Of a DNA stretch of 64,000 nt, positions 42,405-60,356 are shown one piece after another; positions within the stretch are counted from its first letter, which is position 1; every line of letters begins with the position of its first letter. A program made the position numbers and the translations under genes. Below the pieces are notes generated by a model. The model did not search any database, was not told where the DNA came from, and saw only the letters and a list, made by a program, of their open reading frames with translations. This DNA comes from a virus. The stretch covers positions 25,078-89,077 of the IMG/VR virus record IMGVR_UViG_3300048861_000143; one strand, given 5' to 3'.

Positions 42405-42794
42405 TCAGAACCGCACGCACATTTCGTCGGCCCCAATGGCCGGGTTCATGAACTGGAGCCGGCTTTCCATCTCCTGAGCCTTCGCCTCGCGCGTCACTGA
42501 CGCCACGATCCGGGCAAGAAGGACGGCCGGCGTGAGGCCGATCGGCTCTAGGCCGACAATCTGGCTGGCCCGGACCCGCTGAAGCGTGTTGCACCGGACC
42601 ACCGGGTAACGGAGGCTCAGCCCGCAGGCCGCAATGTCGGAGAGATCATCGATCTGGACCTCCGCACGGTGCCTCGGCGGCCCGTTCTTCCCCCAAATCG
42701 GCAGCAGCCACACGTCGCCGTCTCGCGCCGTCCAAACGACACCAAGGCCAGCGCGACGCAAGGCTACCACGTGACCTCGTGCATAGGCGGTCAT
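42405..42794 (-). CDS. Hypothetical protein, possible PemK/MazF-like barrel
   Basis: MTAYARGHVVALR...VWLLPI...VVRCNTLQRV; first gene of the leftward arm. Fold call is weak. Confidence 0.45.
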   Translation of the reverse strand: MTAYARGHVVALRRAGLGVVWTARDGDVWLLPIWGKNGPPRHRAEVQIDDLSDIAACGLSLRYPVVRCNTLQRVRASQIVGLEPIGLTPAVLLARIVASVTREAKAQEMESRLQFMNPAIGADEMCVRF

Positions 42795-43061
42795 GGGCGC
42801 TCGCAGATGAAATTGTATGGGGGTCGCCCGGGGTGGGTCGCAACACACGCCAAGCTAGTGTTTTCAAGCCGAGTTCTGCGCTCAAGTCAAGCACTTATGC
42901 GAGAGCATCTACATGCACCCAGCCAAGCGTCTGAAAACACACCCTTACGCGCGTATGTTGTAGCGCGATTGTCACCCGCCGGGCGTAGGAACTCCGGCGC
43001 AGCACAACCATCGCGGGCATTTCTGTCCGGCATCCGGGATATGAACGACCGGATCGATATG

Positions 43062-43153
43062 GCAAAAATTTTGCAAAATTTCAGGGAAAATCCATCTGGG
43101 CTGCTGCACAGCTCCCCTACCCCCCCGGGTGCCCTTTTTCGACATGGGGGGGT
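43062..43153. repeat. AT-rich palindrome plus C7/G7 inverted repeat
   Basis: AATTTTGCAAAATT (43067-43080) perfect palindrome; ACCCCCCC (43119-43126) and GGGGGGGT (43146-43153). Confidence 0.75.
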
Positions 43154-43159
43154 CGAGTC

Positions 43160-43283
43160 CTCGCGCCTCGCCGAGCCGTGACCTGATGCTCGCACCTCGG
43201 CGAGCCGTGATCCCTGACGCACGATCACGCGTCCCAGACCTACCCGATGCCGGACCGAGTGCTCGCGCCTCGGCGAGCCGTTA
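43160..43283. repeat. Three 22-bp direct repeats CTCGCRCCTCGSCGAGCCGTKA
   Basis: Copies at 43160-43181, 43189-43210 and 43262-43283. Confidence 0.9.
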
Positions 43284-43390
43284 CGTTCGATAATGCCCGT
43301 TTCCGAACGTCACGCGTCCGTGATCACTCGCTGCGCCTCCCTGGCAATCGTGCCGGACCCGATCCGGATTCAAGTTTGAGCACGTGCTCC

Positions 43391-43446
43391 GGACATAATG
43401 TCCATACCGACCCGGCAATCCGGGCATATCGCGGACATTATGTCCG
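43391..43446. promoter_or_regulatory. Two operator-like palindromes GGACAT-W-ATGTCC
   Basis: GGACATAATGTCC 43391-43403; CGGACATTATGTCCG 43432-43446. Confidence 0.65.
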
Positions 43447-43600
43447 ATCCCAGCCTCAGCGAACGCACGCGCACATATACGCGCGCGCGCACGTGTGCCT
43501 GATCGCGCGCGCGACGCGGGCAAGCCCGGACAGGCACCAGACGCCAAATCGCCTCGCGAACCAGTTACCAGATTTATTCGTCTTTCCAGTGACCTAGCGC

Positions 43601-43629
43601 TTGCAAAGACGCCACCGTGGCGTCATTCT
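43601..43629 (+). promoter_or_regulatory. Sigma70-like promoter with palindromic operator in the spacer
   Basis: TTGCAA-N17-CATTCT; GACGCCAC-C-GTGGCGTC at 43608-43624. Confidence 0.6.
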
Positions 43630-43635
43630 CCCGTT

Positions 43636-44160
43636 GTCAGCAAGGCACGGCGGGACGGGTTCCCAGGGTAGAGAGGAGTTGCCAAGCGGACGGACGGGAC
43701 AGGATCGGAACCCTGTCAACGTTCACTTGCCCACCCTGATCTTTGACATACCACCGACGCTTGCCGGTAAGCGGGTCGCGGGATGAATAGGAGGGTTCAC
43801 TGCATCGGGTTTCCCCTTTGCGGAGTGCCTACAGGATACAGGGGCGGAAGCTCCCTGGTTACGTCCAGTCTGCTACCGACGCCACACGGACAAGGCGTTA
43901 GGCGCATGACTGCAAGCCTGTAGGTCCGCACGGATTAGGAAGCCGGACAGTCAACCCGACGCATAAGTCTGACAGTGCGCTGTGTGAGAGATGGCGCGTC
44001 AGATGGAGCGTTACCGGCAACGGTAGCGCGATCGGGCGGTAATCAGGTCGCCCGATGGAAGCACTCCAACGGAAGGAATGACGGAACGAAGCCGCGTCAC
44101 GCGATGGCGCGGCAGGTTCCCCACAATCCGCGTCAGTGGGGCGCGGATTATGGGGAGCTG
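43636..44160 (+). ncRNA. Candidate large structured RNA / leader
   Basis: About ten helices by eye, including a 14-bp bulged stem (43819-43835 / 43917-43930) and GNRA loops (GGAA 43846-43849, GCAA 44017-44020). Confidence 0.45.
44031..44056 (+). promoter_or_regulatory. Early-arm hairpin element copy 1
   Basis: ATCGGGCGG-TAATCAGG-TCGCCCGAT; RBS and ATG at 44078. Confidence 0.8.
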
Positions 44161-44165
44161 TTCAT

Positions 44166-44399
44166 ATGCTGAACGTTGAAATCACGATGCGGCCCGCCCG
44201 TGGCGGTGTTGAGATATGCGCATTCGAAGCGTCAAGCGTGGCGGTCGCGATGCAAGTTGCGGCGGAAGCGTTGGCGGATCGTCAGGATTTGCGGAGCGTT
44301 GTCGTGGAAATCGGCCCTATCACCGATCAAAGCGCGACCGACGCGGAAGTGGATGGCGCGACGCTGGAGGCGGAAGCCCCGGCCGACGGAGAGATCTAA
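44166..44399 (+). CDS. Hypothetical acidic protein
   Basis: MLNVEITMRPARGG...; GGGGAG RBS. Confidence 0.6.
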   Translation: MLNVEITMRPARGGVEICAFEASSVAVAMQVAAEALADRQDLRSVVVEIGPITDQSATDAEVDGATLEAEAPADGEI

Positions 44400-44511
44400 G
44401 CCTATGCGGGCGCGGCTTCCGGGTCGCGTCCCGGGGTTCCCACAACGCTTGGCGGACTGGAACGCGCGCGGGCTTCGGACCGTGGCGCTTTCCAGCCTGC
44501 GAAAGCGGGAC

Positions 44512-44531
44512 GCGCGGTAATCGGGCCGCGC
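44512..44531 (+). promoter_or_regulatory. Early-arm hairpin element copy 2
   Basis: GCGCGG-TAATCGGG-CCGCGC; ATG at 44552. Confidence 0.85.
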
Positions 44532-44551
44532 TGCAAACGGAGGATTGGACA

Positions 44552-45226
44552 ATGGCGGACTATGAAAGCCGGGCCGAGGCGGAACAGGCTCTTACTGACT
44601 CCGACCTGCCCGTGGGCTCCCACGTGGAGATGAACCATGCGGAGCGGTACGAGCTCCGCTTGCCGGATGGTTCTCTGCCCGAGGCTCAGGACGCGGCCGC
44701 GGCGGCGGGCGACAAGCCCAAGGCCGAACGCAAGGCAATCACGTTCCACGCGGTGGCGCAGGAGGGCGATTTGGCTTTCCGCCTCCCCGAAGGCGCGGGC
44801 ATTCCGGCGGCGGAGTTGCAGGCGCTGGTTATGCAGATGGCGCGCCGGTTCGGCATCCCGCTGGACGTGGTTGATCCGACCACCGGCAACACGGTTCGGA
44901 CCGTCCAGCCTGGCGAAAAGGCGGAGCGCGCGGCACGGATTGCCGTTCCGACGGAGGCGCAAAAGGTAATCATCAGCCTTTGCACGCGGCCCGAGGGCGC
45001 GGACACGTTCGCGCTTTTCCAGGGTGGCGCCGCGCCGGGCGGGAAGTTCAACACGATTGCATGGTGGCAGCACGTGAAGGCTTGCGAGAAGTTCGGGTAC
45101 GTGGCGCACAAGTCAGCCACGATCAAAAACAACAAGCCGATCTCGGTCTATCACCTCTCCCCAATCGCGGGACAGAACGAAGCGGACGTGGAGGCGGACC
45201 CGGAATACCGGCTTGCGGCGGACTGA
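44552..45226 (+). CDS. Hypothetical protein with winged-helix-like C-terminus (paralog of 51640-52335)
   Basis: MADYESRAEAEQAL...IISLCTRPEGA...KPISVYHL. Confidence 0.7.
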   Translation: MADYESRAEAEQALTDSDLPVGSHVEMNHAERYELRLPDGSLPEAQDAAAAAGDKPKAERKAITFHAVAQEGDLAFRLPEGAGIPAAELQALVMQMARRFGIPLDVVDPTTGNTVRTVQPGEKAERAARIAVPTEAQKVIISLCTRPEGADTFALFQGGAAPGGKFNTIAWWQHVKACEKFGYVAHKSATIKNNKPISVYHLSPIAGQNEADVEADPEYRLAAD

Positions 45227-45269
45227 TCGGCACGGAACGGGCGGGCTTCGGCCTGCCCGCTCCCGACAC

Positions 45270-45295
45270 AACGGGCGGTAATCGGGCCGCCCGTT
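45270..45295 (+). promoter_or_regulatory. Early-arm hairpin element copy 3
   Basis: AACGGGCGG-TAATCGGG-CCGCCCGTT; ATG at 45313. Confidence 0.85.
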
Positions 45296-45312
45296 CTGCG
45301 GGGAGCAAACCA

Positions 45313-45504
45313 ATGGCTATTCGCTTGCTGAACGACAACGATCCGCTTTTCAGCGTGATCGAAGAGGCGATGGAAACCGTCACGCTTTCGGAGGTCGCCG
45401 AGATTGCCGGCCTCGCGCTCGGGCAGATCCTGAGCCAGGCCGAGGCGCCGCAGGATATGACCGTCGGTGAATGGGGCCGAATGCTTTGCGGCGGGCAGGT
45501 CTGA
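45313..45504 (+). CDS. Hypothetical protein (63 aa)
   Basis: MAIRLLNDNDPLFSVIEEAM...; GGGGAG RBS. Confidence 0.65.
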   Translation: MAIRLLNDNDPLFSVIEEAMETVTLSEVAEIAGLALGQILSQAEAPQDMTVGEWGRMLCGGQV

Positions 45505-45507
45505 GCC

Positions 45508-45801
45508 ATGGGCGCGCCAATCCAGTGGCAGGACAAGCGGGAGGTCTTCGGCTTCCCGGCTTATGAGGCCGAGGTCAACGGCCACCGCATGACCGTGTGG
45601 CAGGCCGAGGTCGGAGTGTGGGGAGCGCAGGTCACGATCGGCACGCGCGAGGCGGAGGTCGCGTGCCGGAACAACGGGCACAAGGCGAAGGCGGCCGCGG
45701 TCGCGTGGGCGCTGGAGCACGAGGCTGGCAAGGTGCGGCTTGAACTTACCAGGCGCTTCGGGGCAATAGCCTGGCGTGTGGCCGAGGAGGTCGCGGCGTG
45801 A
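45508..45801 (+). CDS. Hypothetical protein
   Basis: 97 aa; operon-coupled. Confidence 0.65.
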   Translation: MGAPIQWQDKREVFGFPAYEAEVNGHRMTVWQAEVGVWGAQVTIGTREAEVACRNNGHKAKAAAVAWALEHEAGKVRLELTRRFGAIAWRVAEEVAA

Positions 45802-45876
45802 GCGTCGCTATCGTCAGCCTGTTCGATCAGACCTAGCGGGAGGCGCGGGCTTCGGCCCGCTCCTCTCTGGACAGCA

Positions 45877-45894
45877 AGCGGCAATTGGGTCGCT
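45877..45894 (+). promoter_or_regulatory. Early-arm hairpin element copy 4
   Basis: AGCGG-CAATTGGG-TCGCT; ATG at 45915. Confidence 0.75.
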
Positions 45895-45914
45895 CGCTTT
45901 CCAGGGAGGCTTGG

Positions 45915-46100
45915 ATGTTAGTGGTGATAACCGAGGGCGGAGGCTTATGGAGCTACACGGACGAGGAAAGCCTTCACTTCCGGATCTTGCGGGAGGAGGC
46001 GGCCCGAGGAACGCGCCCCAATTTCTATGATGTGTGGTCTTGGGACGAGGTCTGTGACGCTAAGGGCGCGGGCATGATCTCCGGCGAGGAGCTGGCATGA
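45915..46100 (+). CDS. Hypothetical protein (61 aa)
   Basis: MLVVITEGGGLWSYTDEE...; GGGAGG RBS. Confidence 0.6.
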   Translation: MLVVITEGGGLWSYTDEESLHFRILREEAARGTRPNFYDVWSWDEVCDAKGAGMISGEELA

Positions 46101-46363
46101 CCCCGCGCGGCCGCGTTCTGACGTGCGTTTTCTCGACTGGCGTGGCTTGGGCCGATCGGGAGCGCGAGCGCGATGGGGATTACGTCAGGCTGGCGTTCCT
46201 GCCGTTCGACACGCTCGAGCTCAAGGTTGCGCCGGACTGCCCCGAGCACCTCAAGGCGGGCATCCAGCGGGAGGCTGCGGCCGTCCAGGCTCGGCGCGGG
46301 CAGGAATACCAAATCTCGACCAGCGGCCAGACCGTGAGGCTCGGCCAGGAACGGAGGATTTGA
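46097..46363 (+). CDS. Hypothetical protein
   Basis: 88 aa; ATGA coupling. Confidence 0.6.
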   Translation: MTPRGRVLTCVFSTGVAWADRERERDGDYVRLAFLPFDTLELKVAPDCPEHLKAGIQREAAAVQARRGQEYQISTSGQTVRLGQERRI

Positions 46364-46602
46364 TGCCCAAGTTTACGCTCGTGCTCAAGGAGCACCGCAC
46401 CCAAATCCGCTACTTCGAAATTGAAGCGGAGGCTGACACACTAGATCAGGCGGCCGAACTCGCCATTGAGCAGTACGGTCAAGAGGACAAGTTTTTCGAG
46501 CAACTCGACGCCACGCTGCCGGACGATACCTGGTATGAGGCCGAAATCGCCCATCACGACGAGGCCGGCATCTATCACGTTCTGGTCCCAATGGACCATT
46601 AA
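46363..46602 (+). CDS. Acidic hypothetical protein (79 aa)
   Basis: MPKFTLVLKEHRTQIRYFEIEAEADTLDQA...; TGATG coupling. Confidence 0.65.
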   Translation: MPKFTLVLKEHRTQIRYFEIEAEADTLDQAAELAIEQYGQEDKFFEQLDATLPDDTWYEAEIAHHDEAGIYHVLVPMDH

Positions 46603-46793
46603 GGCGCAAGCATTGACCAAGTATAGGTTCGTGCAACACACGGACTGCGAGTTGGTGGAGGAAATGCACCTCCCCTCGCCTCCATCCGTGGGAGCGTATG
46701 TGCGGCTGACCACGGAGCTCGGGCACGTTGGCTTGTGGCTCGTGCGTCGGGTGACACCGCACCGAACCTATACCGAGGTCCGGGTCGAATAGG

Positions 46794-46812
46794 AGGCGGC
46801 AATCAAGCCGCC
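46794..46812 (+). promoter_or_regulatory. Early-arm hairpin element copy 5
   Basis: AGGCGG-CAATCAAG-CCGCC; AGGAGG RBS, ATG at 46831. Confidence 0.8.
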
Positions 46813-46830
46813 GCCTAGAAAGGAGGCACT

Positions 46831-47019
46831 ATGGATCCCCTATCCGAGACGTGGCTTCGCATCTGGTATCCGGGCGAGGAAGTGGATGCCCATGTCGCAG
46901 CGGAGCGCGCCAGGGCCGAGGCTGCCGAGCTCGCGCGGGAGTCGGCGACACTGGCTCAGTGGCGCGCCGCCTCGGCGGCTGGCACGCTCCACACGCTTCT
47001 CCCGCCCGACGAGCTCTGA
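46831..47019 (+). CDS. Hypothetical protein
   Basis: 62 aa; strong RBS. Confidence 0.65.
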   Translation: MDPLSETWLRIWYPGEEVDAHVAAERARAEAAELARESATLAQWRAASAAGTLHTLLPPDEL

Positions 47020-47029
47020 GGAGGAGCGC

Positions 47030-47371
47030 ATGACCGAAGACCAGATGGCGAAGCTGGAGAGCATCAAGAACTTCCACACTCGGTATGAGGTGGAGGTCGT
47101 GCGGACCGCTGACGGGGCGAGGCGGTTGGTTTGCTACACGCCACGCAAGAGCCGTCGCGGACTCGCTGACGCGATCGGCCAACGAGCCTCTTCCATCAAG
47201 GCGTTCTTGGGCCTTGGCGAGCAAGCGATGGGAGATTTTCGCGGCACCACGGAGTATCTCGTTTTCCCGAACGTTGGCTCGATACGGTTCTCGGGCCGGA
47301 CGCAACGGGACGCCATCCTCGCCGGCGAATTGACCTATGTGGTCGAGGAGGTGGCAGACAAGGCCGCGTGA
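47030..47371 (+). CDS. Hypothetical protein (113 aa)
   Basis: MTEDQMAKLESIKNFH...; GAGGAG RBS. Confidence 0.65.
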   Translation: MTEDQMAKLESIKNFHTRYEVEVVRTADGARRLVCYTPRKSRRGLADAIGQRASSIKAFLGLGEQAMGDFRGTTEYLVFPNVGSIRFSGRTQRDAILAGELTYVVEEVADKAA

Positions 47372-47429
47372 CACATCGGCAGCAGGCGGGGCGATGCTCG
47401 GCCTGCTGTCCATGCGCCATGCATGGGCG

Positions 47430-47445
47430 GCGGCAATCAGGCCGC
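47430..47445 (+). promoter_or_regulatory. Early-arm hairpin element copy 6
   Basis: GCGG-CAATCAGG-CCGC; ATG at 47467. Confidence 0.8.
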
Positions 47446-47466
47446 GGCCAGGTGGAGGCAATCGCA

Positions 47467-48027
47467 ATGACCGAGGAAGTCACATACGGGCTGCTGATCC
47501 AGCGGTTTCACCGCTACGGGTCGGAGCATGTCTCGGCGAAGGTAATGCAGAAAAAGCCCGGAGACGATTTCCCAACTCACATCGGAAGCTTCTCGTCGTG
47601 GGATGGTCGGTGGGACCTCGCCGACCTGGGCATTTACGGGATGGTCTCCGACGGCAGCTTCGGCAAGCCTGAGCACTTCCTGTGTGGAAGCGGGATCGAG
47701 TGGGAGGATACCGGCCGCGTGCCACTAGGCCGAGCGAAGGCGATGGCGAAGATGGCCGCCAAGATCGAAAAGGCGCTTTCCGCAGAGGATGCCCGCGAGC
47801 CTGGGGATATGTTCATGGTCCTGGCCAAGATCGCCGGCGCTCGGTGGGTGGCGATGCCCCGCGGCGGCGAGCCGAACGGATCATCTTCGCTCCGGGACGA
47901 GCGGTGGGTCTGGTACACCGTGCCCGAGGGACGGAACCGGTATCGCCAACTGATCCAGGAGGCCGAGGAGGCCGTCCGAAAGCGGATTGGCTGGAAGCCC
48001 AAGGCCGAGATGTCCGAGGCAGCCTGA
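47467..48027 (+). CDS. Hypothetical protein (186 aa)
   Basis: MTEEVTYGLLIQRFHRYG...; GGAGG RBS. Confidence 0.65.
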   Translation: MTEEVTYGLLIQRFHRYGSEHVSAKVMQKKPGDDFPTHIGSFSSWDGRWDLADLGIYGMVSDGSFGKPEHFLCGSGIEWEDTGRVPLGRAKAMAKMAAKIEKALSAEDAREPGDMFMVLAKIAGARWVAMPRGGEPNGSSSLRDERWVWYTVPEGRNRYRQLIQEAEEAVRKRIGWKPKAEMSEAA

Positions 48028-48081
48028 CGAGTTGGGAGCCAGCGGCTCGATCCGCTGTCTCCTCATGCGCCAGGAGCGCAG

Positions 48082-48105
48082 CGCTGCGGTAATCGGGCCG
48101 CGGCG
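48082..48105 (+). promoter_or_regulatory. Early-arm hairpin element copy 7
   Basis: CGCTGCGG-TAATCGGG-CCGCGGCG; ATG at 48121. Confidence 0.85.
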
Positions 48106-48120
48106 AGGTGGGAGATCCCC

Positions 48121-48891
48121 ATGGACCGAGAAGCCATCCTGAACCGCCTTCGCGCCTTGGCCGCGAGGACGACGGACAACGGATGTACCGAGGCCGAGGC
48201 GCTCATGGCCGCCTCCAAGCTGGCGAGCATGATGGACCGCTACGACTTCGACCAGGCCGACCTCGCCACATCCGGTGAGCCCGAGGAGGTGGTCAACAGG
48301 AACCACTTCGTCCCGCGCACGAAGACGCTGGGAAACCTCAAATTCGTGCTGAAAGCCACGGCCGAGTTCTGCGACTGCCGGGTGTGGGGATCCAATGCGC
48401 AGGTCGAGAAGCGTGGACGTGTCGAGGTTGGTGTCTACTTTGGGCGCGAGAGTGACGTGCTGATGGCGGTCTACCTTACGCACCTGTTCGAGACCGCTGC
48501 ACGTACGGGCTGGTCCGAGTATCGCGCCAGTCTTGGAGCCGTGCTCGATCCTGTCACGGGTCGGCCGAAGGCGAACGGCAACAAGATGGACCGAAACTCG
48601 TTCGAGTGCGGCATGATGAAGCGGTTGAGCGAGCGCCTGCGCGAGATGAAGGCGGCGCGGAATGCTCATGTAGACGATCAGACCGGGCGCACCGGACAGA
48701 GCCTCGTGGTCACGAAGAACCGGCTTGTCGAGCAAGCCTTTCAAGCGCTGTCGGTCAAGCTTCACAGCCGGAACTACAAGACGAGGTTCAACGTGGCTGG
48801 ATACGACGCGGGCCGAAGCGCGGCCGATCGGGTCAACATCACCACAGGGATCGGCGGCAGCTCGCGCCAGTCGGCGGCGTTGCTGACATGA
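48121..48891 (+). CDS. DUF2786 domain protein
   Basis: ILNRLRALAARTTDNGCTEAEALMAASKLASMMDRYD N-terminus. Confidence 0.85.
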   Translation: MDREAILNRLRALAARTTDNGCTEAEALMAASKLASMMDRYDFDQADLATSGEPEEVVNRNHFVPRTKTLGNLKFVLKATAEFCDCRVWGSNAQVEKRGRVEVGVYFGRESDVLMAVYLTHLFETAARTGWSEYRASLGAVLDPVTGRPKANGNKMDRNSFECGMMKRLSERLREMKAARNAHVDDQTGRTGQSLVVTKNRLVEQAFQALSVKLHSRNYKTRFNVAGYDAGRSAADRVNITTGIGGSSRQSAALLT

Positions 48892-48949
48892 TCCGCACGC
48901 TTGCATTGGCGCTGCTCGGACTCACGACGTTCAGGAAAGGAGGTTCAAT

Positions 48950-49399
48950 TTGCGTACCCTGACACAAGATGAAATCAAGGCCGCGCTCGCCACGCTGATT
49001 AGCAATGGCCTCACGTTTAGTCAGTGCGTGCAAGCCTTCCATGATCGCTCGCTCCCATATGAGAAGATCTATATCAGGCACGCGAAAACCAAGGCAGGCG
49101 AGGTCGAGGTAGACTCCAACGCCATAGTCTCGGTGAGCGATGACAACGGCGCCTACGTCATGGCGTGGCTCTGGGTGGCTGACTCTGACATCTGGAAGGG
49201 TCCGACCGACAGTGACGGCGAACCATGCCGGTTCGTAAACCACTACCACTGCGAGGAGTGTGACCAAACATGGTCGGACCAGTGGTCGTGCGCTTGCAAT
49301 GACGAGTGTCCTTCATGCGGCGCCGAGATCGAGCCAACCGAAAGCACTGAGCTGGATCTCGAGGGCAGTCCAATAGACGAGCTTGAAGTCACAGCCTGA
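48950..49399 (+). CDS. Hypothetical protein with Zn ribbon
   Basis: FVNHYHCEECDQTWSDQWSCACNDECPSCG. Confidence 0.7.
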   Translation: MRTLTQDEIKAALATLISNGLTFSQCVQAFHDRSLPYEKIYIRHAKTKAGEVEVDSNAIVSVSDDNGAYVMAWLWVADSDIWKGPTDSDGEPCRFVNHYHCEECDQTWSDQWSCACNDECPSCGAEIEPTESTELDLEGSPIDELEVTA

Positions 49400-49450
49400 C
49401 CGTTGGGGAGTGGCCGCCGAGTGCGGCCCCTCTCTATGGGCCAGCCCATA

Positions 49451-49472
49451 CGAGCGGCAATCGAGCCGCTCG
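49451..49472 (+). promoter_or_regulatory. Early-arm hairpin element copy 8
   Basis: CGAGCGG-CAATCGAG-CCGCTCG; AAGGAG RBS, ATG at 49489. Confidence 0.85.
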
Positions 49473-49488
49473 ACCAAGGAGAAATCAG

Positions 49489-49662
49489 ATGGCGAAGACC
49501 TCGAGGGTGAAAAATCGCAAGCGCGCGGCTGAAATGTTGCGTAAGCTCGTGGACGGCGAGTGCGGCGAGGGCCTCCGCCGGTCTGCCCTGCGGATGGCCG
49601 AACGCCTTGAAGGCCGGCCGGTCCCGCGGGTTCGCCAGATCGTTTTCCTCTCCAACTCGTAG
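49489..49662 (+). CDS. Basic small protein (57 aa)
   Basis: MAKTSRVKNRKRAAEMLRKLVDGECGEGLRRSALRMAERLEG...; below the ORF-track cutoff. Confidence 0.6.
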   Translation: MAKTSRVKNRKRAAEMLRKLVDGECGEGLRRSALRMAERLEGRPVPRVRQIVFLSNS

Positions 49663-49698
49663 CCGGGGGCGCATCGCCTCCGACCAGGATTACCCGAA

Positions 49699-50019
49699 AT
49701 GCGGAACGACAACATTCGCAGGCTGGCCGAGATGGTCAGCCGCCAGAGAGACGGCGAGCACGCCAGCAAGGTTGTGCTCGCTGGGTGTGTAGCGTGGCCC
49801 GAGCAAATGCGCCCGATCCTGGACATTCCCGGACTGTCCGAGAGGTCGCTTGCGGCGCTGGTGCCGATCGCAACCGGTCTCGCCTTGAGACGGCCGACCT
49901 GCCAGCCCCAGGTTCGAGCGATGTGGCTCGCAGTGCAGCGGGATCACCCTTCTGCGCGGCCAGCCGAGGATCTGCGGCTCCAAAAGCGTGACCTCGGCGC
50001 GCGCTACCTCTGCGGATGA
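49699..50019 (+). CDS. Hypothetical protein
   Basis: 106 aa ORF in operon orientation. Confidence 0.4.
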   Translation: MRNDNIRRLAEMVSRQRDGEHASKVVLAGCVAWPEQMRPILDIPGLSERSLAALVPIATGLALRRPTCQPQVRAMWLAVQRDHPSARPAEDLRLQKRDLGARYLCG

Positions 50020-50030
50020 GGGAGGAAATC

Positions 50031-50228
50031 ATGCCAGCAGACAAGTATGAGATCGACGCTGCGGTTCTGGGCTTCTACAGGGACGAGAACACGGGGAAGT
50101 GGAGGCACCCAGACTGCCGGGAGTATGCCACCACGAAGGCTCGTTACGCCGTTGAGGATTACGGCATGATCCAGGTGCAGAAGATACAGCTTGCCAAGGC
50201 GAACGAACCACGGAGACACACGTCGTGA
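50031..50228 (+). CDS. Hypothetical protein
   Basis: MPADKYEIDAAVLGFYRDE...; GGAGG RBS. Confidence 0.6.
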   Translation: MPADKYEIDAAVLGFYRDENTGKWRHPDCREYATTKARYAVEDYGMIQVQKIQLAKANEPRRHTS

Positions 50229-50301
50229 GCCCGAGCGCTCGCGCGCAAACGAGTTGATGTCTCCAGCCCTGCCGCTATCGTGGCGGGGCGCTGACGCATT
50301 G

Positions 50302-50335
50302 CCTTGCAGACGAGTGGATTGTCTCGTCTGCAAGG
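50302..50335. terminator. 13-bp perfect hairpin
   Basis: CCTTGCAGACGAG-TGGATTGT-CTCGTCTGCAAGG upstream of element copy 9. Confidence 0.55.
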
Positions 50336-50357
50336 TCATACGCCAGAACAGCGTAGG

Positions 50358-50381
50358 CGCTGCGGTAATCGGGCCGCAGCG
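50358..50381 (+). promoter_or_regulatory. Early-arm hairpin element copy 9
   Basis: CGCTGCGG-TAATCGGG-CCGCAGCG; ATG at 50402. Confidence 0.85.
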
Positions 50382-50401
50382 AAGCAAGAGAGAGTGGGCA
50401 C

Positions 50402-51580
50402 ATGCCGCTCGAGGTAACTGCAAAATTCGACGTTTCCCAGGACACGGGTCGCACCGACTGGTCGCTGTCGCGCCAGTGGGCGTCTCGCCCGAAGGACCAG
50501 CGCTTTGTCACGCTGGAAGAGATGCGGACCATGCTCGACGCGCGCTCTGCCAAGTCCAGCACCATCGACCTGCCGATCGGTCGCATCCGGCCCGAGCTGG
50601 ACAGTGACGGAGAGCTCGGGTTCGAGGCGGAGGGTAAGCTGTTCCGACCGACGAATTACAGCTTCCAGCAGCTCTGCCGTTCGATCGACGTGCCGTCATT
50701 CTTCCTGACGAACACGCTCAAGGACGCACCCTGGTTGGTGGCCGAAAACCTCCGGTACGGTGTCAAGGCGCACCCGGATCAGGACAAGGATGTTCAGTTC
50801 TACGTCTCGGGCGACAACCTCCGGGCCGTGACCGGCCCCAACTACGGCCGCATCGAAGATCGTGAGGTGCTGCGCGCGGCGATGGAGGCTTTCGCCGAGA
50901 GCGGGTGCAACTGGCAGGTGCCAACCGCATTCGCCCGGCCAGGGACGCCATACAAGTGCATTGACCCCTCCCTCGAGGAGACGACGCTCTACGCCTCCGA
51001 CCGGGACATGTACCTCTGCCTCGTCGATCAGGAGAACCCGATCGAGGCCGGCTTCATCACAGATCCCCGGACCGGGGCGCGCATCCCTGACCTCTATTCG
51101 CGGGGCGTCATCATCAAGCATGGCGAGTGCGGTGATCGGAAGGGCGAGATCTGGTCCTTCCTGTATCGCTGGATCTGCTGCAACCGCTCGATCCGCGAGC
51201 AGAAGCTGCTGCAGAAGCTCTCATGGCGGCACACCGCGAACGTGCGCGACCACTTCCACAGCAACGTGGTTCCCGCCCTTCAGGCGTTCGTCAACGGCTC
51301 GGCCGCTGGCGTGGCTGGAGCAATCAAGTCGGCACGCGAGGCAACCGTCGTGAGAACCGTCGAGGAGTCGATCCCCTGGATGGTTGAGACCCTGAAGATC
51401 TCGGCCGACAAGGCCACGGAGGTCGCGCGCATCGGCCTCGAGGAGGAAGGACGCCCGATCGAGACGCTCTACGATGTTGTGCAGGCAGTGAGCGCGTTCG
51501 CCCGCCGCATGCCCCATCAGGATGAGCGCGTCCTGGTCGAGCGCCAGGTTGGGCGCCTGCTCGACAAAGTCGCGGCCTAA
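50402..51580 (+). CDS. DUF932 family protein
   Basis: LSRQWASRPKDQRFVTLEE, LRAVTGPNYGRI, TLYASDRDMY.CLVD, R.ICCNRSI. Confidence 0.85.
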   Translation: MPLEVTAKFDVSQDTGRTDWSLSRQWASRPKDQRFVTLEEMRTMLDARSAKSSTIDLPIGRIRPELDSDGELGFEAEGKLFRPTNYSFQQLCRSIDVPSFFLTNTLKDAPWLVAENLRYGVKAHPDQDKDVQFYVSGDNLRAVTGPNYGRIEDREVLRAAMEAFAESGCNWQVPTAFARPGTPYKCIDPSLEETTLYASDRDMYLCLVDQENPIEAGFITDPRTGARIPDLYSRGVIIKHGECGDRKGEIWSFLYRWICCNRSIREQKLLQKLSWRHTANVRDHFHSNVVPALQAFVNGSAAGVAGAIKSAREATVVRTVEESIPWMVETLKISADKATEVARIGLEEEGRPIETLYDVVQAVSAFARRMPHQDERVLVERQVGRLLDKVAA

Positions 51581-51587
51581 GCAAAGC

Positions 51588-51607
51588 GGCGCACCGCGAG
51601 GTGCGCC
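51588..51607 (+). terminator. GNRA-capped hairpin followed by pyrimidine tract
   Basis: GGCGCACC-GCGA-GGTGCGCC just after the DUF932 stop. Confidence 0.5.
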
Positions 51608-51639
51608 ATCCCCTTCCCTCTGTTCCAAGGATTGCACCA

Positions 51640-52335
51640 ATGACCCACCCGAATGACACGTTCCGCTATGCCAGCCGCGGCGCTGCGATCGAGGCCGCGG
51701 AGATGGCCGGACTGGATCTCGACGATCTCGTGGTCAAGCAGCTCGGCGGCGTGTGGGGCTGGCTGGTGGAGGGTGCCGATGATGCCCCGCCTTCCCCGCC
51801 CCAGAACCCCGCCCAGACGGCCCCTGAGCCGTCCCCCGGGGTGGTTGTGCGGTTGCCGCCGGTGAACCGCCCGGCCCCCTCCCCTGCGCCATCAGTGAGC
51901 GCCACGATGGACCCTTCCCGTCAGCCTGAGCCGGGCGATCTCGTCCTCCAGTATCTCGGTCCTCAGCCGGCGATGGGCGCCATCCTGATGGCGGAGGAAA
52001 TGGCGAAGCAGCATGAAGGCTTCTTCGTCTTGAAGAATGCCATCACGGGCGAGGTGGTGAAGATCGTGCAGGGCAAGAAGCCACGCAACTCCAGCGGGCT
52101 CACCGCCGAGCAGCACGCCAAGATGATCGAGATGTGCTGCGACGATGGCGGCACCACAGCTCGTCGGCTGGACCAGGAACTTGGGGTCAAGAAGACCGGC
52201 CCGCAGTGGGTCAAGATCCTGACTGCCTGCGCCGACTACGAGTTCGATGGCAGCACTGCGATCCAGGAGAACGGACGCCCGACACAGGTTTACATCCTGC
52301 GCCGCAAGGCGGAGTTGGAAGAAAAAGCGGCGTGA
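51640..52335 (+). CDS. Hypothetical protein with winged-helix-like C-terminus (paralog of 44552-45226)
   Basis: MTHPNDTFRYASRGAAIEAA...MIEMCCDDGGT...RPTQVYIL. Confidence 0.7.
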   Translation: MTHPNDTFRYASRGAAIEAAEMAGLDLDDLVVKQLGGVWGWLVEGADDAPPSPPQNPAQTAPEPSPGVVVRLPPVNRPAPSPAPSVSATMDPSRQPEPGDLVLQYLGPQPAMGAILMAEEMAKQHEGFFVLKNAITGEVVKIVQGKKPRNSSGLTAEQHAKMIEMCCDDGGTTARRLDQELGVKKTGPQWVKILTACADYEFDGSTAIQENGRPTQVYILRRKAELEEKAA

Positions 52336-52672
52336 TGCGTCGGAGCGACCGGCCGGCGGGGAGCTTAGCTCCCCGAGTTCTGTTACTAGCCATGGCGACG
52401 GCGTTCCTCATCGAGGTGACGCCCGTTGACTGGCTCAACGACCTGATGACGAGCGAGGGCTGCGGCGGAGCGCCCGCAATCCAGATGGGATACCGAACGG
52501 GCTGGCGCTGCGATGTCCCGGACTATGGCAGCGCTCCTCCGCACAAGCGCCGGCATAGCAAGCGCGAAGACCGCGATACCAGGAGACGGGAGCAGGATTT
52601 CGGCCAGCGCTGAGGCCGAAAGGCATGGGGAGCGTGCGCGTTACGCGGCGCTCTCCCTATGCCACGCGAACA

Positions 52673-52692
52673 CTGCGGCAATCGGGCCGCAG
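52673..52692 (+). promoter_or_regulatory. Early-arm hairpin element copy 10
   Basis: CTGCGG-CAATCGGG-CCGCAG; GTG at 52714. Confidence 0.8.
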
Positions 52693-52713
52693 GAACGATC
52701 GGAGGAATGAACC

Positions 52714-52902
52714 GTGCCACGGTTTAACATCGAGGGAATCGTCCACCTCGCCGAAGGCTTTCAGATATCGGTGGAAGCCGAAGACGAAAGAGCCGCTGAG
52801 AAACTGGCAATGCGGATGCTCAATCGTTGTGCCTTTCGCGAAGCTGAGCTCCAGGAAGTGTGCATCTCGACTTGTCAAGAGGTCACATCAGAGAAGCGGT
52901 AA
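52714..52902 (+). CDS. Hypothetical protein
   Basis: 62 aa; GGAGG RBS. Confidence 0.6.
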   Translation: MPRFNIEGIVHLAEGFQISVEAEDERAAEKLAMRMLNRCAFREAELQEVCISTCQEVTSEKR

Positions 52903-52998
52903 CTTCACGCAACGGAACAAGCCCAGGCAACGCAAGGAGATAACTACCAGCGAGCGACGCCGCGCGGCTCTTTTGGGCTTGGCGCGCGCGCCGTTGGC

Positions 52999-53014
52999 GT
53001 GGTAATTTTACCAC
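52999..53014. promoter_or_regulatory. Operator-like palindrome next to TTGACG
   Basis: GTGGTAA-TT-TTACCAC immediately 5' of a -35-like TTGACG. Confidence 0.5.
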
Positions 53015-53049
53015 CTTGACGGCTAGGCGGGACACGAGAGATCACCACG

Positions 53050-53283
53050 ATGCAAGCAAAAGCACCTGAGAACCAGGACCTATTTGCGCCTTCGCCGTCG
53101 GCGCCAGCGGCGATCCGCGAGGAGTTCACAACAGTCGCGCAGGCGCACGCGTGGATTGACCGCAACGGTTGGCTTCCTCGCCACGGCGGCGGCTATGAGC
53201 GGGCCGGTTCAGGCGTTGGCAAGCTCTTCGGTGAGAAGAGCAAGAACAGTGACGCTACGGTGCTGGTGTTCGAGGCGCCCTGA
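53050..53283 (+). CDS. Hypothetical protein
   Basis: 77 aa. Confidence 0.55.
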   Translation: MQAKAPENQDLFAPSPSAPAAIREEFTTVAQAHAWIDRNGWLPRHGGGYERAGSGVGKLFGEKSKNSDATVLVFEAP

Positions 53284-53311
53284 TCCGCGCCCGTGCACCA
53301 CTACTCAGGAC

Positions 53312-53329
53312 TGCGGTAATCGGGCCGCA
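53312..53329 (+). promoter_or_regulatory. Early-arm hairpin element copy 11
   Basis: TGCGG-TAATCGGG-CCGCA; ATG at 53349. Confidence 0.8.
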
Positions 53330-53348
53330 ATCAAGCGAGAGCATCATC

Positions 53349-56300
53349 ATGCAGGGAACACCATCGGGTGCCATCGAGGGCTCCGCAGACACGCTGGAAG
53401 GCCCCGTGACCACTTCTCAACTCAGCTTCTTCTCTACTCATGCACCGGAAGCGGCCGACGTTCCGGCCACGGACTACCGGCTGTTCGGTCGCCGCGCCCT
53501 GGCCTCCGGCTGGAAAGCCCGGGCGCTCGACAACATCGTGGCGGTCGAGCTCTCCAAGAGGATCGAGAGCGAGGGCCGCCCGGCCACGGATGAGGAAAAA
53601 GACCAACTCATCAAGTTCGTCGGGTTCGGGGCCACCGAACTGGCCACGAGCATCATCTCTAAGCCGTTTCGTGCCGGGTGGGAGAAGATCGGCACGCGCC
53701 TCCACCGCGCGATTACAGCGGAGGAACTGAAAGAGCTCGCGCGCGCGACGCAGTATGCGCACTACACGCCCGAGTTCATCATCAAGGCGATGTGGAAGGG
53801 AATGCGCCGCCTGGGGTTCACTGGCGGCGCCGTGCTCGAGCCTGGGTGCGGAACCGGCCTGTTCCTCGCTCTCATGCCGGAGGGGATGAAGAGCCGGTCC
53901 ACCTTCCTTGGTGTGGAAGCGTGCTCTGTCACAGCCCGGATCTCGCGGCTGCTCTATCCCGAGAGCGACATTTGGTGCGGCGACTTCACGCGGGAGACGA
54001 TCCCGCCGGCCTTCGACCTGGCGATCGGCAACCCGCCGTTCTCGTCAGTCTCCATCCAAGGACGGGACGAAATCGGCAAGCTGGGCCTGTCTCTCCACGA
54101 CTACTTCATTGCCCGATCCATCGACGCGTTGCGGCCGGGCGGTCTCGCCGCCTTCGTGGTCTCCCGCTACACGATGGACAAGTCGGACACGACGGCTCGC
54201 GAGTTCATCGCCGACCGCGCCGATCTACTCGGCGCCATTCGGATGCCCCACGGCGCGATGAGCGCTGAGGCTGGGACCGAGGTCGTGGTTGACCTGCTGT
54301 TCTTCCAGCGTCGTGAGACTCTGCTCGGCGCCGACGCGGCGCGGCCCGAGTGGGTGAACGTCGGCCCGACCTACCTGTCGATCGACGGCAAGCCCGCGCA
54401 CATCAACGAATACTTCCTCTCCAACCCGCACATGATGTTGGGCGAGGGCGCGATCGTCAGCAGCCAGCACGGCCCGACATGGACCTGCAAGGGAAGCGTC
54501 ACCGACCTCGACATCCTTCTGGCCGATGCGATCCGCATGCTGCCAGAGAAGATCTACCAGCCAACGACGCTGCCTCGGCCGGCCCCGGCGGCCGGACCGC
54601 GCGTCCGGATCGGCACCGCGGCCGACCGCGCCCGCATCAAGGAAGGCAGCTACTTCGTCCAGGACGACACGCTTTTCCAGGTGATCGACGGCGCGCCTAT
54701 GACGGTGCAGGTCAAGGACGGAAAGGGCACCGAGGGTATTTTCAAGAAAACGGCCAAGATCATCCGCGGGATGATCGGGCTGAGGGATGCCGTCCGGGAC
54801 ATTCTCGCCGCTCAGGAAGCGGATCTACCCTGGCAGGAGCACCAGGCCCGGCTTCGGACGCTCTACGCGGGGTTCGTGCACGAGTTCGGGCCGGTCAACC
54901 TCACCACGGTCTCGGAGCGGCCGGACCCAAAGACCGGCGAGCCACGGCAGTATTTCAGATACCCGAACGTCGCGGCGTTCCGGGACGATCCTGACTGTCC
55001 GCTGGTGCAGGTCATCGAGGACTATGACCCGACCACGGGGATCGCAACCAAGGGTCCGATCTTCACTGACCGGGTGATCTCTCCTCCAACCGAGGTGATC
55101 ATATCCTGCCCTGCCGACGCCCTGGTCGTGGTTCTCAACGAGCTCGGTAAGGTCAACCTGGGCCGCATCGGGGAGCTGCTCGGGGTGCCGGAGCCAGCCG
55201 TCATCTCGGCTCTCGGTGACCTGATCTACCTGAACCCGTCATCCGGCGAGTGGGAAACGGCCGATGCCTACCTGTCGGGCAACGTTCGCAGAAAACTCGC
55301 GGAGGCAAAGGAAGCCGCGGCCACGGACCATCGCCTCGAAAGGAATGTGAAGGCGCTGCAGGAAAAGCTGCCCGTCGATCTGCTTCCGAGCGAGATCACC
55401 GCGCGCTTGGGCGCATCGTGGATCCCGGTGGATGTTATCGAAGCGTTCAGCCTCGAGGTGCTCAAGATCAGGGCTCGCGTATTCCACACGCCGGAGATCG
55501 GTCTGTGGTCAGTGGACGCGGCCGCGTTCAAGTCGTCAGCAGCCGCTCTTGCGGACTGGGGCACTCGGCGGCGCCACGCGGGCGACCTACTGCTGGATGC
55601 GCTGACGTCCAACATCCCGCAGATTTACGACACGATCAGGGACATCAACGGCGAGGTCCGTGTCCTCAACGTGAAGGAGACGCAGGCAGCCCAGGACAAG
55701 CTCGCGGCCATCAAGGAGGCATTCTCCGAATGGGTTTGGAAGGAGCCCAAGCGCGCCGATCGGTTGGCCGGGATCTACAACGAGACCTTCAACAACATCG
55801 TGCCTCGGTCATTCGACGGAAGCCACCTGGTGCTGCCGGGCGCGTCCGACACGGTGCAGCTCCGGCAGCACCAGAAGCGAGGCGCATGGCGCATGGTGTG
55901 CGCCGGCTCGACGTATCTCTCGCACGTCGTCGGAGCTGGCAAGACCATGTGCCTTATCGCTGGCTGCATGGAGCAGAAGCGCCTCGGCCTGATCACGAAG
56001 CCAATGATCGTCGTGCCGGGCCATACGCTCTACCAGTGGGCGCGCGAGTTCCTGCAGCTTTATCCGAACGCGAACATACTGCTGGCCGACGAGGAGAACT
56101 TCTCCAAGGAGAAGCGCAAGCGCTTCGTGGCGCGCGCCGCCACCGGCAACTGGGATGCGGTCATCATCACGCACTCAGCCTTCAAGTTCATCTCGGTCCC
56201 GACGGAATTCGAGGCCGGCATGATCGAAGCCCAGCTCGATACCTACGACGAGATGCTAGAGCACGCGGACAAGTCGGATCGGACTTCCGTCAAGAAGCTC

Positions 56301-58451: not shown

Positions 58452-58455
58452 GCAG

Positions 58456-58483
58456 CGGCGGGTGGCGATCAGGCCACCCGCCG
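58456..58483 (+). promoter_or_regulatory. Early-arm hairpin element copy 12
   Basis: CGGCGGGTGG-CGATCAGG-CCACCCGCCG (compensatory GTGG/CCAC); ATG at 58504. Confidence 0.75.
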
Positions 58484-58503
58484 AAGAAATAGGAGCCACG
58501 AGA

Positions 58504-58842
58504 ATGCACTGCACGCCAACATACCGCTTCCACATCCGTCGCCTGCAGGCTGGAAGCAATGTCTTCGGGGACTGCGAAGTCTGCGGGAAGCCCGTTGCCA
58601 CGGTCTACCAGCAGATCAGGGAATGCGCGATCGCACTCGAGCGCGACGACGCCGCGCGGCTCTGGAAGATTTACCCCAGCGGTACGGCGTGGGCTCCAGC
58701 AGGTGACCTCTACGGGCACTTCGACTGCCTCTTGAAGGTCAGGACGCAGGGGTGCCGCGGCACCCAGGAGCCGTCCTTTCTCGCTGCGACGATCGCCCCC
58801 GCCGGGCGCATGCACCAACAGCAGGACGGAGGCACGGCATGA
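58504..58842 (+). CDS. Hypothetical protein with CxxC
   Basis: MHCTPTYRFHIRRL...FGDCEVCGKP; AGGAG RBS. Confidence 0.6.
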   Translation: MHCTPTYRFHIRRLQAGSNVFGDCEVCGKPVATVYQQIRECAIALERDDAARLWKIYPSGTAWAPAGDLYGHFDCLLKVRTQGCRGTQEPSFLAATIAPAGRMHQQQDGGTA

Positions 58843-59114
58843 CCGAAGAACTCATCGAGCTTCGCCGGCCACTGCCGGACTTGGCGCTGTCGATCCAGGG
58901 ACTGCCTCCCGATCTGCCGCGACCCTACGAGAGCGTCCGGCTCAGAGTGCCAGGTCGCCGCGTGCCAATCGCCTACGTCCTCACCGGTTATTCGAAGGAC
59001 GATGAAGGCGAGTGGCACTTCAATGCTCGCGATGCTTTCGGCCGCGAAGTGCCCGGGCACATCGACCAGCTGCGGCCTCTCACCAAGCTGGAGTCCCACC
59101 ATGCTGACAGATGA
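58839..59114 (+). CDS. Hypothetical protein
   Basis: MTEELIELRRPLPDL...; ATGA coupling. Confidence 0.6.
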   Translation: MTEELIELRRPLPDLALSIQGLPPDLPRPYESVRLRVPGRRVPIAYVLTGYSKDDEGEWHFNARDAFGREVPGHIDQLRPLTKLESHHADR

Positions 59115-59355
59115 ACCGAAGAGCCTCACGGGCGTCGAAGAAGACGTCCAGAATATCCTGACAGCCCTCGCCCCGCTTCGGCTCACGGCGCGGTCTGTCA
59201 TCGGTGCGGCGATCGTCGGGCAGCCGAGCGTCATGCGGATGCTGATCAAGGACCTCTCCGACCAGGCCACTCATCTCGCTGAGTGCTGCGAGGCGCTCCT
59301 CAACACCACGGATCACCTCGAGCTGGAACCGGCTGAGGATGTCCCGTCATGCTGA
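59101..59355 (+). CDS. Hypothetical helical protein
   Basis: MLTDEPKSLTGVEEDVQNIL...; GGAG RBS. Confidence 0.55.
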   Translation: MLTDEPKSLTGVEEDVQNILTALAPLRLTARSVIGAAIVGQPSVMRMLIKDLSDQATHLAECCEALLNTTDHLELEPAEDVPSC

Positions 59356-60356
59356 TAACCGCAGGGGAAAGGGGACTGGCCGAGCGCGTCGCGGAGCTGC
59401 AGGAGCGTTCGGCCGAGTATGCGGCCCAGGCCTACGGCGAGGGCACCCGGGCAGTGTACCGGCGTTCCGGGGTGGCCTACCAGGATTGGTGCCGCCGGCA
59501 TGCCCGCGCGGCTTACGACGGAGATCCTGAGACCGTCGCGCTCTACATCACCGACTGCGCCGAGCGTGGGTTCTCTGTCAGCACCATCCGGATCCATCTC
59601 GCGGCGATCCGTACGGCCCACAAGCTGGTCGGCGTCCCGCTTGATCTGAGCCATCCCCGTCTGGCCATGGTGCGGGAGGGTATCGCCCGGTCAAAGGGCG
59701 TGGCGCCGCGCCGCAGGGCGGCTGCAGCGGTCCCGGACGTGCTCCGGGCCATGCTGGGCACCCGGCAGCCTGCGACGGCCCCAGCGGGCGCCAGAGACCG
59801 CGCAATGCTGCTGATCGGGTTTGGGGCCGGGCTCCGCCGATCGGAGCTGGTCGGGCTGCACATCGGCGACGTCGAGATCGTCCCTGGCCGTGGCCTGCGC
59901 GTGAATATCCGCCGGTCGAAGACGGATCAGCGTGGCACGGGGTGTACGGTCAACGTGTGCGCCAACCCTAAGGATCCTGATTTCTGCCCAGCAGAGGCGC
60001 TCGACCGATGGATGGAGCACCGCTCGGCCGCCGCCGATGGCGCGCCTCCTGATGGGCCGCTCTTCTGTGGTGTGCGCCGGTCGGGGAGACTGAAGGCCGA
60101 GCCGTTGTGCGACCAGACTGTCGCTCTGCTGGTCAAGGACGCGGCCCGCAAGGCGGGATACGACCCGACCTCGTTCTCCGGGCACTCCCTGCGGCGCGGC
60201 CTTGTCACGACCCTGGCCGGCCGGGGCGCCTCGCTGTCGGGCACGATGGAGCACGTCCGGCATGCCGATCCGAAGAACACGATGATCTACATCGAGCAGC
60301 AGCGGGGCTGGGAGAGCAACGTCACGGGCCTGATCTTCGGGGGAGAGCGGCCATGA
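59349..60356 (+). CDS. Tyrosine recombinase (Cre/Xer-like)
   Basis: SAM-like N-domain; RDRAMLLIGFGAGLRRSEL, SKTDQ, FSGHSLRRG, RH, MIY catalytic residues. Confidence 0.92.
   Translation: MLITAGERGLAERVAELQERSAEYAAQAYGEGTRAVYRRSGVAYQDWCRRHARAAYDGDPETVALYITDCAERGFSVSTIRIHLAAIRTAHKLVGVPLDLSHPRLAMVREGIARSKGVAPRRRAAAAVPDVLRAMLGTRQPATAPAGARDRAMLLIGFGAGLRRSELVGLHIGDVEIVPGRGLRVNIRRSKTDQRGTGCTVNVCANPKDPDFCPAEALDRWMEHRSAAADGAPPDGPLFCGVRRSGRLKAEPLCDQTVALLVKDAARKAGYDPTSFSGHSLRRGLVTTLAGRGASLSGTMEHVRHADPKNTMIYIEQQRGWESNVTGLIFGGERP

Follow-up and report, generated by a model that had tools for sequence, protein, structure and literature searches.

How should a 530-nt stretch without genes, positioned between the two divergent arms of an uncultured phage genome, be read: as a new non-coding RNA, as DNA with a function of its own, or as part of a message? 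The stretch (43636-44165) belongs to a 64,000-nt window, the whole of the DNA analyzed here, taken from an IMG/VR virus record of 149.8 kb (bases 25078-89077) that represents a soil phage of high GC content; positions given below are those of the window, and features lie on the + strand unless stated otherwise. Codon-position GC periodicity combined with ORF filtering placed the last leftward gene at 42405-42848 (- strand) and the first and second rightward genes at 44166-44399 and 44552-45226 (both + strand), leaving a gap of 1.3 kb without genes, of which the stretch is the right-hand part; the periodicity was too noisy for the genome-wide detection of non-coding gaps. To the left, packaging and head genes (portal, large terminase, DUF2213), followed by a ParB-type methylase, are carried by the - strand, and early-type genes (DUF2786, a methylase-SNF2 fusion, integrase, helicase) lie to the right on the + strand. 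An initial annotation had described about 500 nt of dense base pairing here and proposed a large phage ncRNA, a ribozyme, or a multi-switch leader. The results presented below indicate that the stretch is most likely the leader of an early message rather than a new free-standing RNA, and a probability of about 0.5 is assigned to the specific reading that the rightward early operon begins with this stretch as a long, untranslated 5' leader, possibly protected by boxA and Nus factors, with the ribosome-binding site of the first gene locked in a hairpin.

For the coding potential, all three + frames of the stretch carried several stops, codon-position GC periodicity was absent from 42850 to 44165, and the short ORFs of the stretch gave no Pfam match, which led to the rejection of a hidden gene or pseudogene and agrees with the initial failure to see a convincing ORF. 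Moreover, an Rfam scan, which had been proposed as a check, returned no match at gathering thresholds across the whole window and only chance-level matches for 43200-44400 at E<=10 (the best being CRISPR-DR56, with 16.8 bits vs a threshold of 35), the families tested comprising riboswitches, ribozymes, RNase P, tmRNA, 6S, GOLLD/ROOL, C4, CsrB/Rsm, pRNA, and others. ARAGORN likewise detected no tRNA or tmRNA in the window. The earlier statement that the sequence matched no tRNA, tmRNA, RNase P, or known riboswitch was thus borne out, whereas the proposal of a ribozyme found no Rfam family in its favor, even at E<=10. The stretch is therefore non-coding and falls within no described family. The weak likeness of 43681-43711 to CRISPR-DR56 (E 4.5) was taken as chance.

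Searches for relatives were also negative. Blastn in distant mode with 43400-44400 retrieved nothing from 50,697 phage records, the neighboring proteins retrieved nothing from viral contigs, and the 224-residue right-hand neighbor protein had no relative among 5.8 billion proteins. The leader had no paralogue in the 149.8-kb genome, and a MITE-like element was rejected on account of the single genome copy and the lack of a target duplication. In addition, 83 loci carrying relatives of the ParB methylase or portal showed no similarity to the leader and no copy of the repeated element described below, and the closest cultured phages reached a portal identity of only ~40%. The product of the last leftward gene (42405-42848, - strand), P0002, corresponds to phrog_27245 and had only two relatives among 5.8 billion proteins, both metagenomic, P0003 (on a 6.2-kb Logan contig) at 73% and P0004 (on a 65.9-kb JGI contig) at 49% identity, with the core GPPRHRAEV...DIAACG invariant in all three; scans with this protein family across metagenome, viral, and genome collections recovered no locus.

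Folding energies were compared with those of dinucleotide shuffles, a comparison named initially among the possible refutations. The whole 530 nt folded at -241.8 kcal/mol vs -206.4 +/- 6.2 in the shuffles (z -5.75, with 0 of 100 shuffles as good), and the opposite strand beat its shuffles as well (z -5.41). The excess of structure was local. The left third, 43636-43815, was at chance level (z +1.28; 181 of 200 shuffles as good), whereas 43816-43934, which holds a three-way junction, reached z -3.43 on the + strand and -4.08 on the opposite strand, and 43935-44165 reached z -5.86 and -4.90, respectively; a sliding-window scan revealed the same pattern, with no excess in the left third. Inspection of the sequence confirmed the position of every helix quoted in the initial annotation, later hairpins included. 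Among these, the first two (CAGGGT at 43664 with ACCCTG at 43733, and GACAGG at 43698 with CCTGTC at 43712) are nevertheless at chance level, given the z-score of the left third, and 43664-43738 folded alone gave z -1.5. Thus, the claim of about 500 nt of dense pairing stands for 43816-44165 and fails for 43636-43815, and the structure is genuine over the right two thirds of the stretch.

Within the structured part, the three-way junction (43819-43930) is closed by a helix of 14 bp with a 3-nt bulge, in which TGCGGA and CCTACAGG (43819-43835) pair with CCTGTAGG and TCCGCA (43917-43930), as quoted initially. The enclosed hairpins, also correctly described, are 8 nt apart, one with a GGAA loop (43840-43857) and one formed by CAGTCTGC and GCATGACTG with a 10-nt loop (43866-43912; alone z -3.4). 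The junction is followed by hairpin 1 (43967-44004), composed of TCTGAC/GTCAGA and an inner GC helix (-17.3 kcal/mol, z -2.9), by hairpin 2 (44008-44029), with 9 bp including one G-U pair and a GCAA tetraloop (-15 kcal/mol, z -5.2), and by the hairpin of the first copy of the repeated element, element copy 1 (44030-44057; z -3.5). Further downstream, a purine-rich spacer with four GGA motifs (44058-44090) is mostly unpaired (unpaired probabilities 0.4-0.75) and precedes hairpin 4 (44091-44113), formed by GCCGCGTCA and TGGCGCGGC with one U-G pair (-16.9 kcal/mol, z -3.4), and hairpin 5 (44115-44159), with 19 bp and one C-A mismatch (-33.3 kcal/mol, z -6.6). The 3' arm of hairpin 1 is repeated at 44103 as GATGGCGCG-N-CAG, and hairpins 1, 4, and 5 have arm sequences in common (repeat families D5 and D9), suggesting local duplication. 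Together with the chance-level left third and the singleton nature of the sequence, for which no conserved relatives were retrieved, these common arms could be taken to mean that the stretch is a largely functionless spacer holding relics of duplicated intergenic hairpins, with selection acting only on the hairpin at the ribosome-binding site and on element copy 1. However, phage genomes are compact, 530 bases without genes at the head of an early operon would be unusual, and the junction and hairpins are individually significant, making this the least probable of the readings weighed here.

Since the opposite strand folds nearly as well, folding energy cannot separate an RNA of the + strand from inverted repeats in DNA. 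The energy difference between the strands (~16 kcal/mol) equals the difference between the shuffled means of both strands, and tetraloop counts were too few for a statistical strand assignment. The inverted repeats might therefore act as DNA, either as protein-binding palindromes or as part of an origin or of a packaging region where the two arms diverge, as would be consistent with the similar folding of both strands and with the iterons and unique palindromes in the repeat-rich 43060-43630 adjoining the stretch on the left. However, 43636-44165 contained no motif for DnaA, CtrA, or IHF and was free of AT-rich patches (the AT-rich patch lies at ~43055, outside the stretch), and no genome-wide GC-skew turning point falls there, by which origin motifs inside the stretch and a skew-based origin signal were rejected. 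Moreover, the hairpins, with their long loops, bulges, and junction, are more in keeping with RNA than with cruciforms, and the family to which element copy 1 belongs is confined to one strand and contains G-U pairs. Action at the DNA level is accordingly considered improbable.

Element copy 1 carries the core GCGG-YAATCRRG-YCGC and scored 35.1 bits with a covariance model, R1, built from all twelve copies of the element. A whole-genome search with R1 yielded exactly 12 matches of 30-38 bits (family range 30.6-38.2), all on the + strand from 44030 to 58483, and the best match outside the family reached 18 bits; the hairpin at 43698 was not a member, and degenerate extra copies in the leader were rejected, as none was found with R1. 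The stems of these paralogues covary (both bases differ in 7 of 11 pairs, and the observed covariation score was reached by 0 of 500 shuffles), and at two positions of the stem G-U or U-G pairs occur that would become mismatches if read on the opposite strand. Most of the other copies are preceded by a GC-rich hairpin, the "hairpin A" place that is taken here by hairpin 2, and hairpin 2 plus copy 1 constitute the first of twelve modules on the + strand, each consisting of a hairpin and a conserved covarying hairpin. In the other units the module follows a gene, whereas here it follows a folded stretch without ORFs. The features of the array, including C(UUCG)G loops in three of the partner hairpins, point to RNA-level structure on the + strand across the whole early arm, implying that transcription reaches copy 1 from upstream, through at least part of the stretch. 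The 16-nt element core retrieved only single, chance-level matches from viral and genome contigs.

No intrinsic terminator was detected between 43600 and 44166, and there was no excess of them across 42800-59400; a rightward transcript would thus enter gene 44166. This bears on the proposal of a discrete ncRNA of ~250-400 nt, with a core made up of the three-way junction and hairpin 1. Such an RNA would stand in the place of a "first cistron," and the 44008-44057 module would be where it ends or is released; its action would be in trans, perhaps as a host-factor decoy. The position of the first module, behind a folded stretch where other units have a gene, would fit such an RNA, as would the well-defined junction, in which the minimum-energy fold is the centroid, the two GNRA loops on the + strand, and a boxA-like site (see below) of the kind typical of long untranslated RNAs. 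The missing terminator and Rfam match speak against it, as do the lack of a paralogue or an antisense target in the genome and the equally good folding of the junction on the opposite strand. No reverse-complement match to the leader exceeded 13 nt in the genome, which is a chance length, and duplex energies of 43636-44030 against 12 start regions and 12 element cores gave z +1.8 and +0.8, respectively, relative to shuffled leaders; an antisense regulator (c4-type or anti-RBS) of the phage's own early genes was rejected for this lack of excess complementarity. In addition, GGA was the most enriched trinucleotide in the leader (23 vs 10.6 +/- 3.7) yet was not preferentially exposed (mean unpaired probability 0.43 vs 0.34 overall, with ~8 motifs exposed), and no CsrB or Rsm model matched, which lends no support to a Csr sponge. 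A discrete ncRNA is consequently regarded as doubtful. Still less likely is the more specific proposal that the ORF-less 43780-44030 is a stand-alone phage RNA, the first to be made after infection, carried through by boxA-type antitermination, cut at the first module, and acting in trans on a host factor, although, if true, it would represent a new class of early phage ncRNA.

The left third contains the boxA-like site GATCTTTGACA (43738-43748), a post hoc discovery, which was the sole match to G-N-TCTTT-R-A-N-A on both strands of the 149.8-kb genome; when the leader was dinucleotide-shuffled 20000 times, the pattern appeared in 18 of the shuffles. BoxA serves rRNA operons, lambda nut, and T7 as the site for NusB/NusE. 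The phage site is identical at 10 of 11 bases to GCTCTTTGACA, the boxA of a Sphingomonas rRNA leader, found in a complete genome at a distance of 192 nt ahead of a 16S rRNA gene. Compared with GYTCTTTAANA, the boxA consensus in gamma-proteobacteria (PMC5725501), 9 of 11 bases agree, position 2 being A rather than C or T. The site also overlaps a perfect TTGACA hexamer at 43743 and could, as a result, be a -35 box instead of a boxA. In that case transcription would start inside the stretch, at ~43778, so that 43636-43777 would be promoter DNA and the RNA would consist of the structured two thirds only. The perfect hexamer favors an internal start, and the part without structure is exactly that upstream of ~43800; however, no acceptable -10 hexamer was found 16-19 nt after TTGACA, and the Sphingomonas counterpart of the 11-mer is a transcribed boxA, rendering an internal start rather unlikely.

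A small hairpin, CGCTT/AAGCG (43757-43772), begins 8 nt past the boxA-like site and is present in the predicted folds, but alone is not significant; its position relative to boxA is that of boxB in a nut site. For the start of the transcript, a scan of 42800-59400 detected no sigma-70 consensus promoter. A weak promoter-like sequence, TTGCAA-17-CATTCT (43601-43629; 7 of 12 consensus positions), lies just outside the stretch and is assumed here to be the leader start. It is overlapped by a palindrome with 11-bp arms (43605-43627), GACGCCAC-C-GTGGCGTC, which occurs once in the genome. No T7-type RNA polymerase gene was found (the control for this search was uninformative), suggesting that host polymerase reads the arm from an upstream start. 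A perfect AGGAGG is also present in the left third, at 43789-43794, with no start codon 4-10 nt downstream.

Regarding boxA-like words in other genomes, the Sphingomonas genome G005 (loci L225 and L227-L235) contained ~10 further exact copies of GCTCTTTGACA besides those of the rRNA leaders. Most of them lie 20-24 nt past a GCACTAT or ATGCTAGC motif, and three are followed by a common GCAACCGTGACTTTTG-type segment; on this sequence pattern, the extra copies may form a family of boxA-headed transcripts. Furthermore, an Ancylobacter genome (G001, loci L239-L241) carried three near-identical repeat copies with GATCTTTGAGA, and in the one copy checked (L239) no rRNA gene was located within ~3 kb, indicating that boxA-like words do not always mark rRNA leaders.

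At the right-hand end, the Shine-Dalgarno sequence GGGGAG (44152-44157) of the first rightward gene (ATG at 44166) lies within the 3' arm of hairpin 5, confirming the initial observation that the last hairpin covers the ribosome-binding site. The other 11 element copies stand 19-26 nt ahead of a Shine-Dalgarno sequence and start codon; copy 1 differs from them in that the real gene start is 114 nt away, with the purine-rich spacer, hairpin 4, and hairpin 5 in between. A possible upstream ORF of 33 codons (44078-44179) begins with an ATG 26 nt past the element core, within the range of the other copies, crosses both hairpin 4 and hairpin 5, and has its stop 11 nt past ATG 44166. The chance of a start codon at such a distance is about 1 in 3, the Shine-Dalgarno spacing of this ORF is poor, and its codon-position GC gives no coding signal; that it is a real frame coupling translation to gene 44166 is accordingly a speculative suggestion from its placement. 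An alternative pairing, 44105-44112 with 44128-44135, reaches -11.5 kcal/mol vs -33 for the hairpin at the ribosome-binding site, and with the upstream arm masked the fold keeps hairpin 5 and the Shine-Dalgarno sequence is not freed. A translational attenuator of the ermC type was rejected on these grounds, and the multi-switch part of the initial proposal likewise finds no support, as this sole alternative pairing found cannot rival hairpin 5. The 19 bp of hairpin 5, with the mismatch forming a 1x1 internal loop, are adequate in length for an RNase III processing hairpin, for which about two helical turns of duplex are expected. The gene behind the hairpin shows a codon-position GC pattern and encodes 77 residues with a strongly acidic composition (15 D+E, 4 K+R, pI ~4.05); this protein had no relative in viral contigs.

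Taken together, of the three possibilities named in the initial annotation, ncRNA, ribozyme, or multi-switch leader, it is the leader alone that is supported, by the missing terminator, the hairpin at the ribosome-binding site, and the element module. An untranslated early leader is favored by the non-coding frames, by the strong folds of 43816-44165, by the uninterrupted path into a gene whose ribosome-binding site lies in hairpin 5, and by membership in a module present in 12 copies on the + strand, in the early arm only, and with covarying stems. It is further favored by the boxA-like site, which is unique in the genome, rare in shuffles, placed in the part without structure, and close to an rRNA-leader boxA. 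The reading is weakened by the lack of a convincing promoter, the best candidate reaching 7 of 12 positions, and by the nearly equal folding of the opposite strand. The boxA-like site also weakens it in that it departs from the consensus at position 2, contains TTGACA, and was found post hoc, and the three-way junction has no role in this reading, nor does the poor Shine-Dalgarno spacing of the upstream frame help it.

If the stretch is such a leader, host RNA polymerase would transcribe it on the + strand. The first ~180 nt would remain unstructured, and the boxA-like site there may load host Nus factors, after which the polymerase would pass the three-way junction, a hairpin, the two-hairpin module, and finally the 19-bp hairpin that locks the ribosome-binding site. 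Loaded with Nus factors, it could cross ~400 nt of folded untranslated RNA and the GC-rich hairpins between the genes without terminating, and a functional boxA would account for the escape of those ~400 untranslated nt from Rho. Gene 44166 would then be translated only once hairpin 5 opens, for which RNase III-type cleavage, ribosomes translating the short upstream frame, or a factor could be responsible; the simplest analogy would be RNase III cutting the 19-bp duplex, as in the lambda N leader.

This arrangement resembles the early control region of T7 (host promoters A1-A3, boxA, RNase III site R0.3, and gene 0.3/Ocr), in which a non-coding leader of several hundred bases likewise heads an early polycistronic RNA made by host polymerase. 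In T7, a boxA lies behind the early host promoters (PMC3709561), and the early polycistronic RNA is cut at hairpins before each early gene (PMC4858673). The resemblance extends to the small, very acidic first early protein, but there is no sequence similarity, no consensus promoters were found here, one base of the boxA-like site is off consensus, and the repeated hairpins are short with a conserved loop, unlike the T7 RNase III sites. Gene 44166 occupies the place that the gene for the acidic anti-restriction protein Ocr has in T7. In the pL leader of lambda, nutL (boxA and boxB) is followed by an RNase III-sensitive hairpin next to the ribosome-binding site of N. The present leader is similar in having, in this order, a boxA-like site, a small hairpin 8 nt on, and a long hairpin occluding the start of the first early gene. 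It differs in that an N-like protein was not found, in that the loop of the small hairpin is unlike that of boxB, and in having over twice the length, with the three-way junction in addition.

The put RNA of HK022, a double hairpin of ~65 nt, makes polymerase resistant to termination (PMC8632103), and is defined by two stem-loops one unpaired base apart that act in cis on the polymerase. The junction resembles it as a pair of adjacent hairpins in an early leader, ahead of many hairpin-rich intergenic regions; its hairpins, however, are separated by 8 nt and enclosed in a third helix, and with no sequence likeness the comparison is pure analogy. Cluster K mycobacteriophages carry start-associated sequences, a private motif at a fixed short distance before start codons (PMC3203893). 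Element copy 1 similarly belongs to a private conserved motif found before many starts, but the element is a covarying hairpin that precedes the start by 19-26 nt, and the Shine-Dalgarno sequence follows it instead of being part of it.

If the leader reading is correct, infection by this phage would begin with a long untranslated RNA, perhaps borrowing an antitermination signal of the host rRNA type, and the small acidic first early protein would be kept behind a very stable hairpin, so that an uncultured soil phage of high GC content, unrelated to T7 or lambda, would follow a control logic like theirs. As such, the leader is an ordinary kind of object in a phage without known relatives, and, its sequence being a singleton, it is of use chiefly for the context that it gives to the hairpin system of the early arm. 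It marks the start of the twelve-copy array that organizes the whole arm, and where it starts and how it is processed bear on whether the array hairpins serve as processing sites, stabilizers, or translational operators.

Several minor observations concern the array and the gap. The usual early intergenic layout (44400-58510) consists of a stop, a GC-rich hairpin, a pyrimidine tract, the element, a Shine-Dalgarno sequence, and a start, and in several units the pyrimidine tract is predicted to pair with the Shine-Dalgarno sequence across the element. C(UUCG)G loops are present in three partner hairpins, before the copies at 44514, 45275, and 45878. In the gap between the arms, the palindromes GGACATAATGTCC and GGACATTATGTCC (43391-43446), at a distance of 42 nt from each other, are both unique in the genome. 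A CATAAT-type -10 hexamer is present on one strand of each, and from their sequence the two resemble operators or a back-to-back pair of promoters serving the divergent arms.
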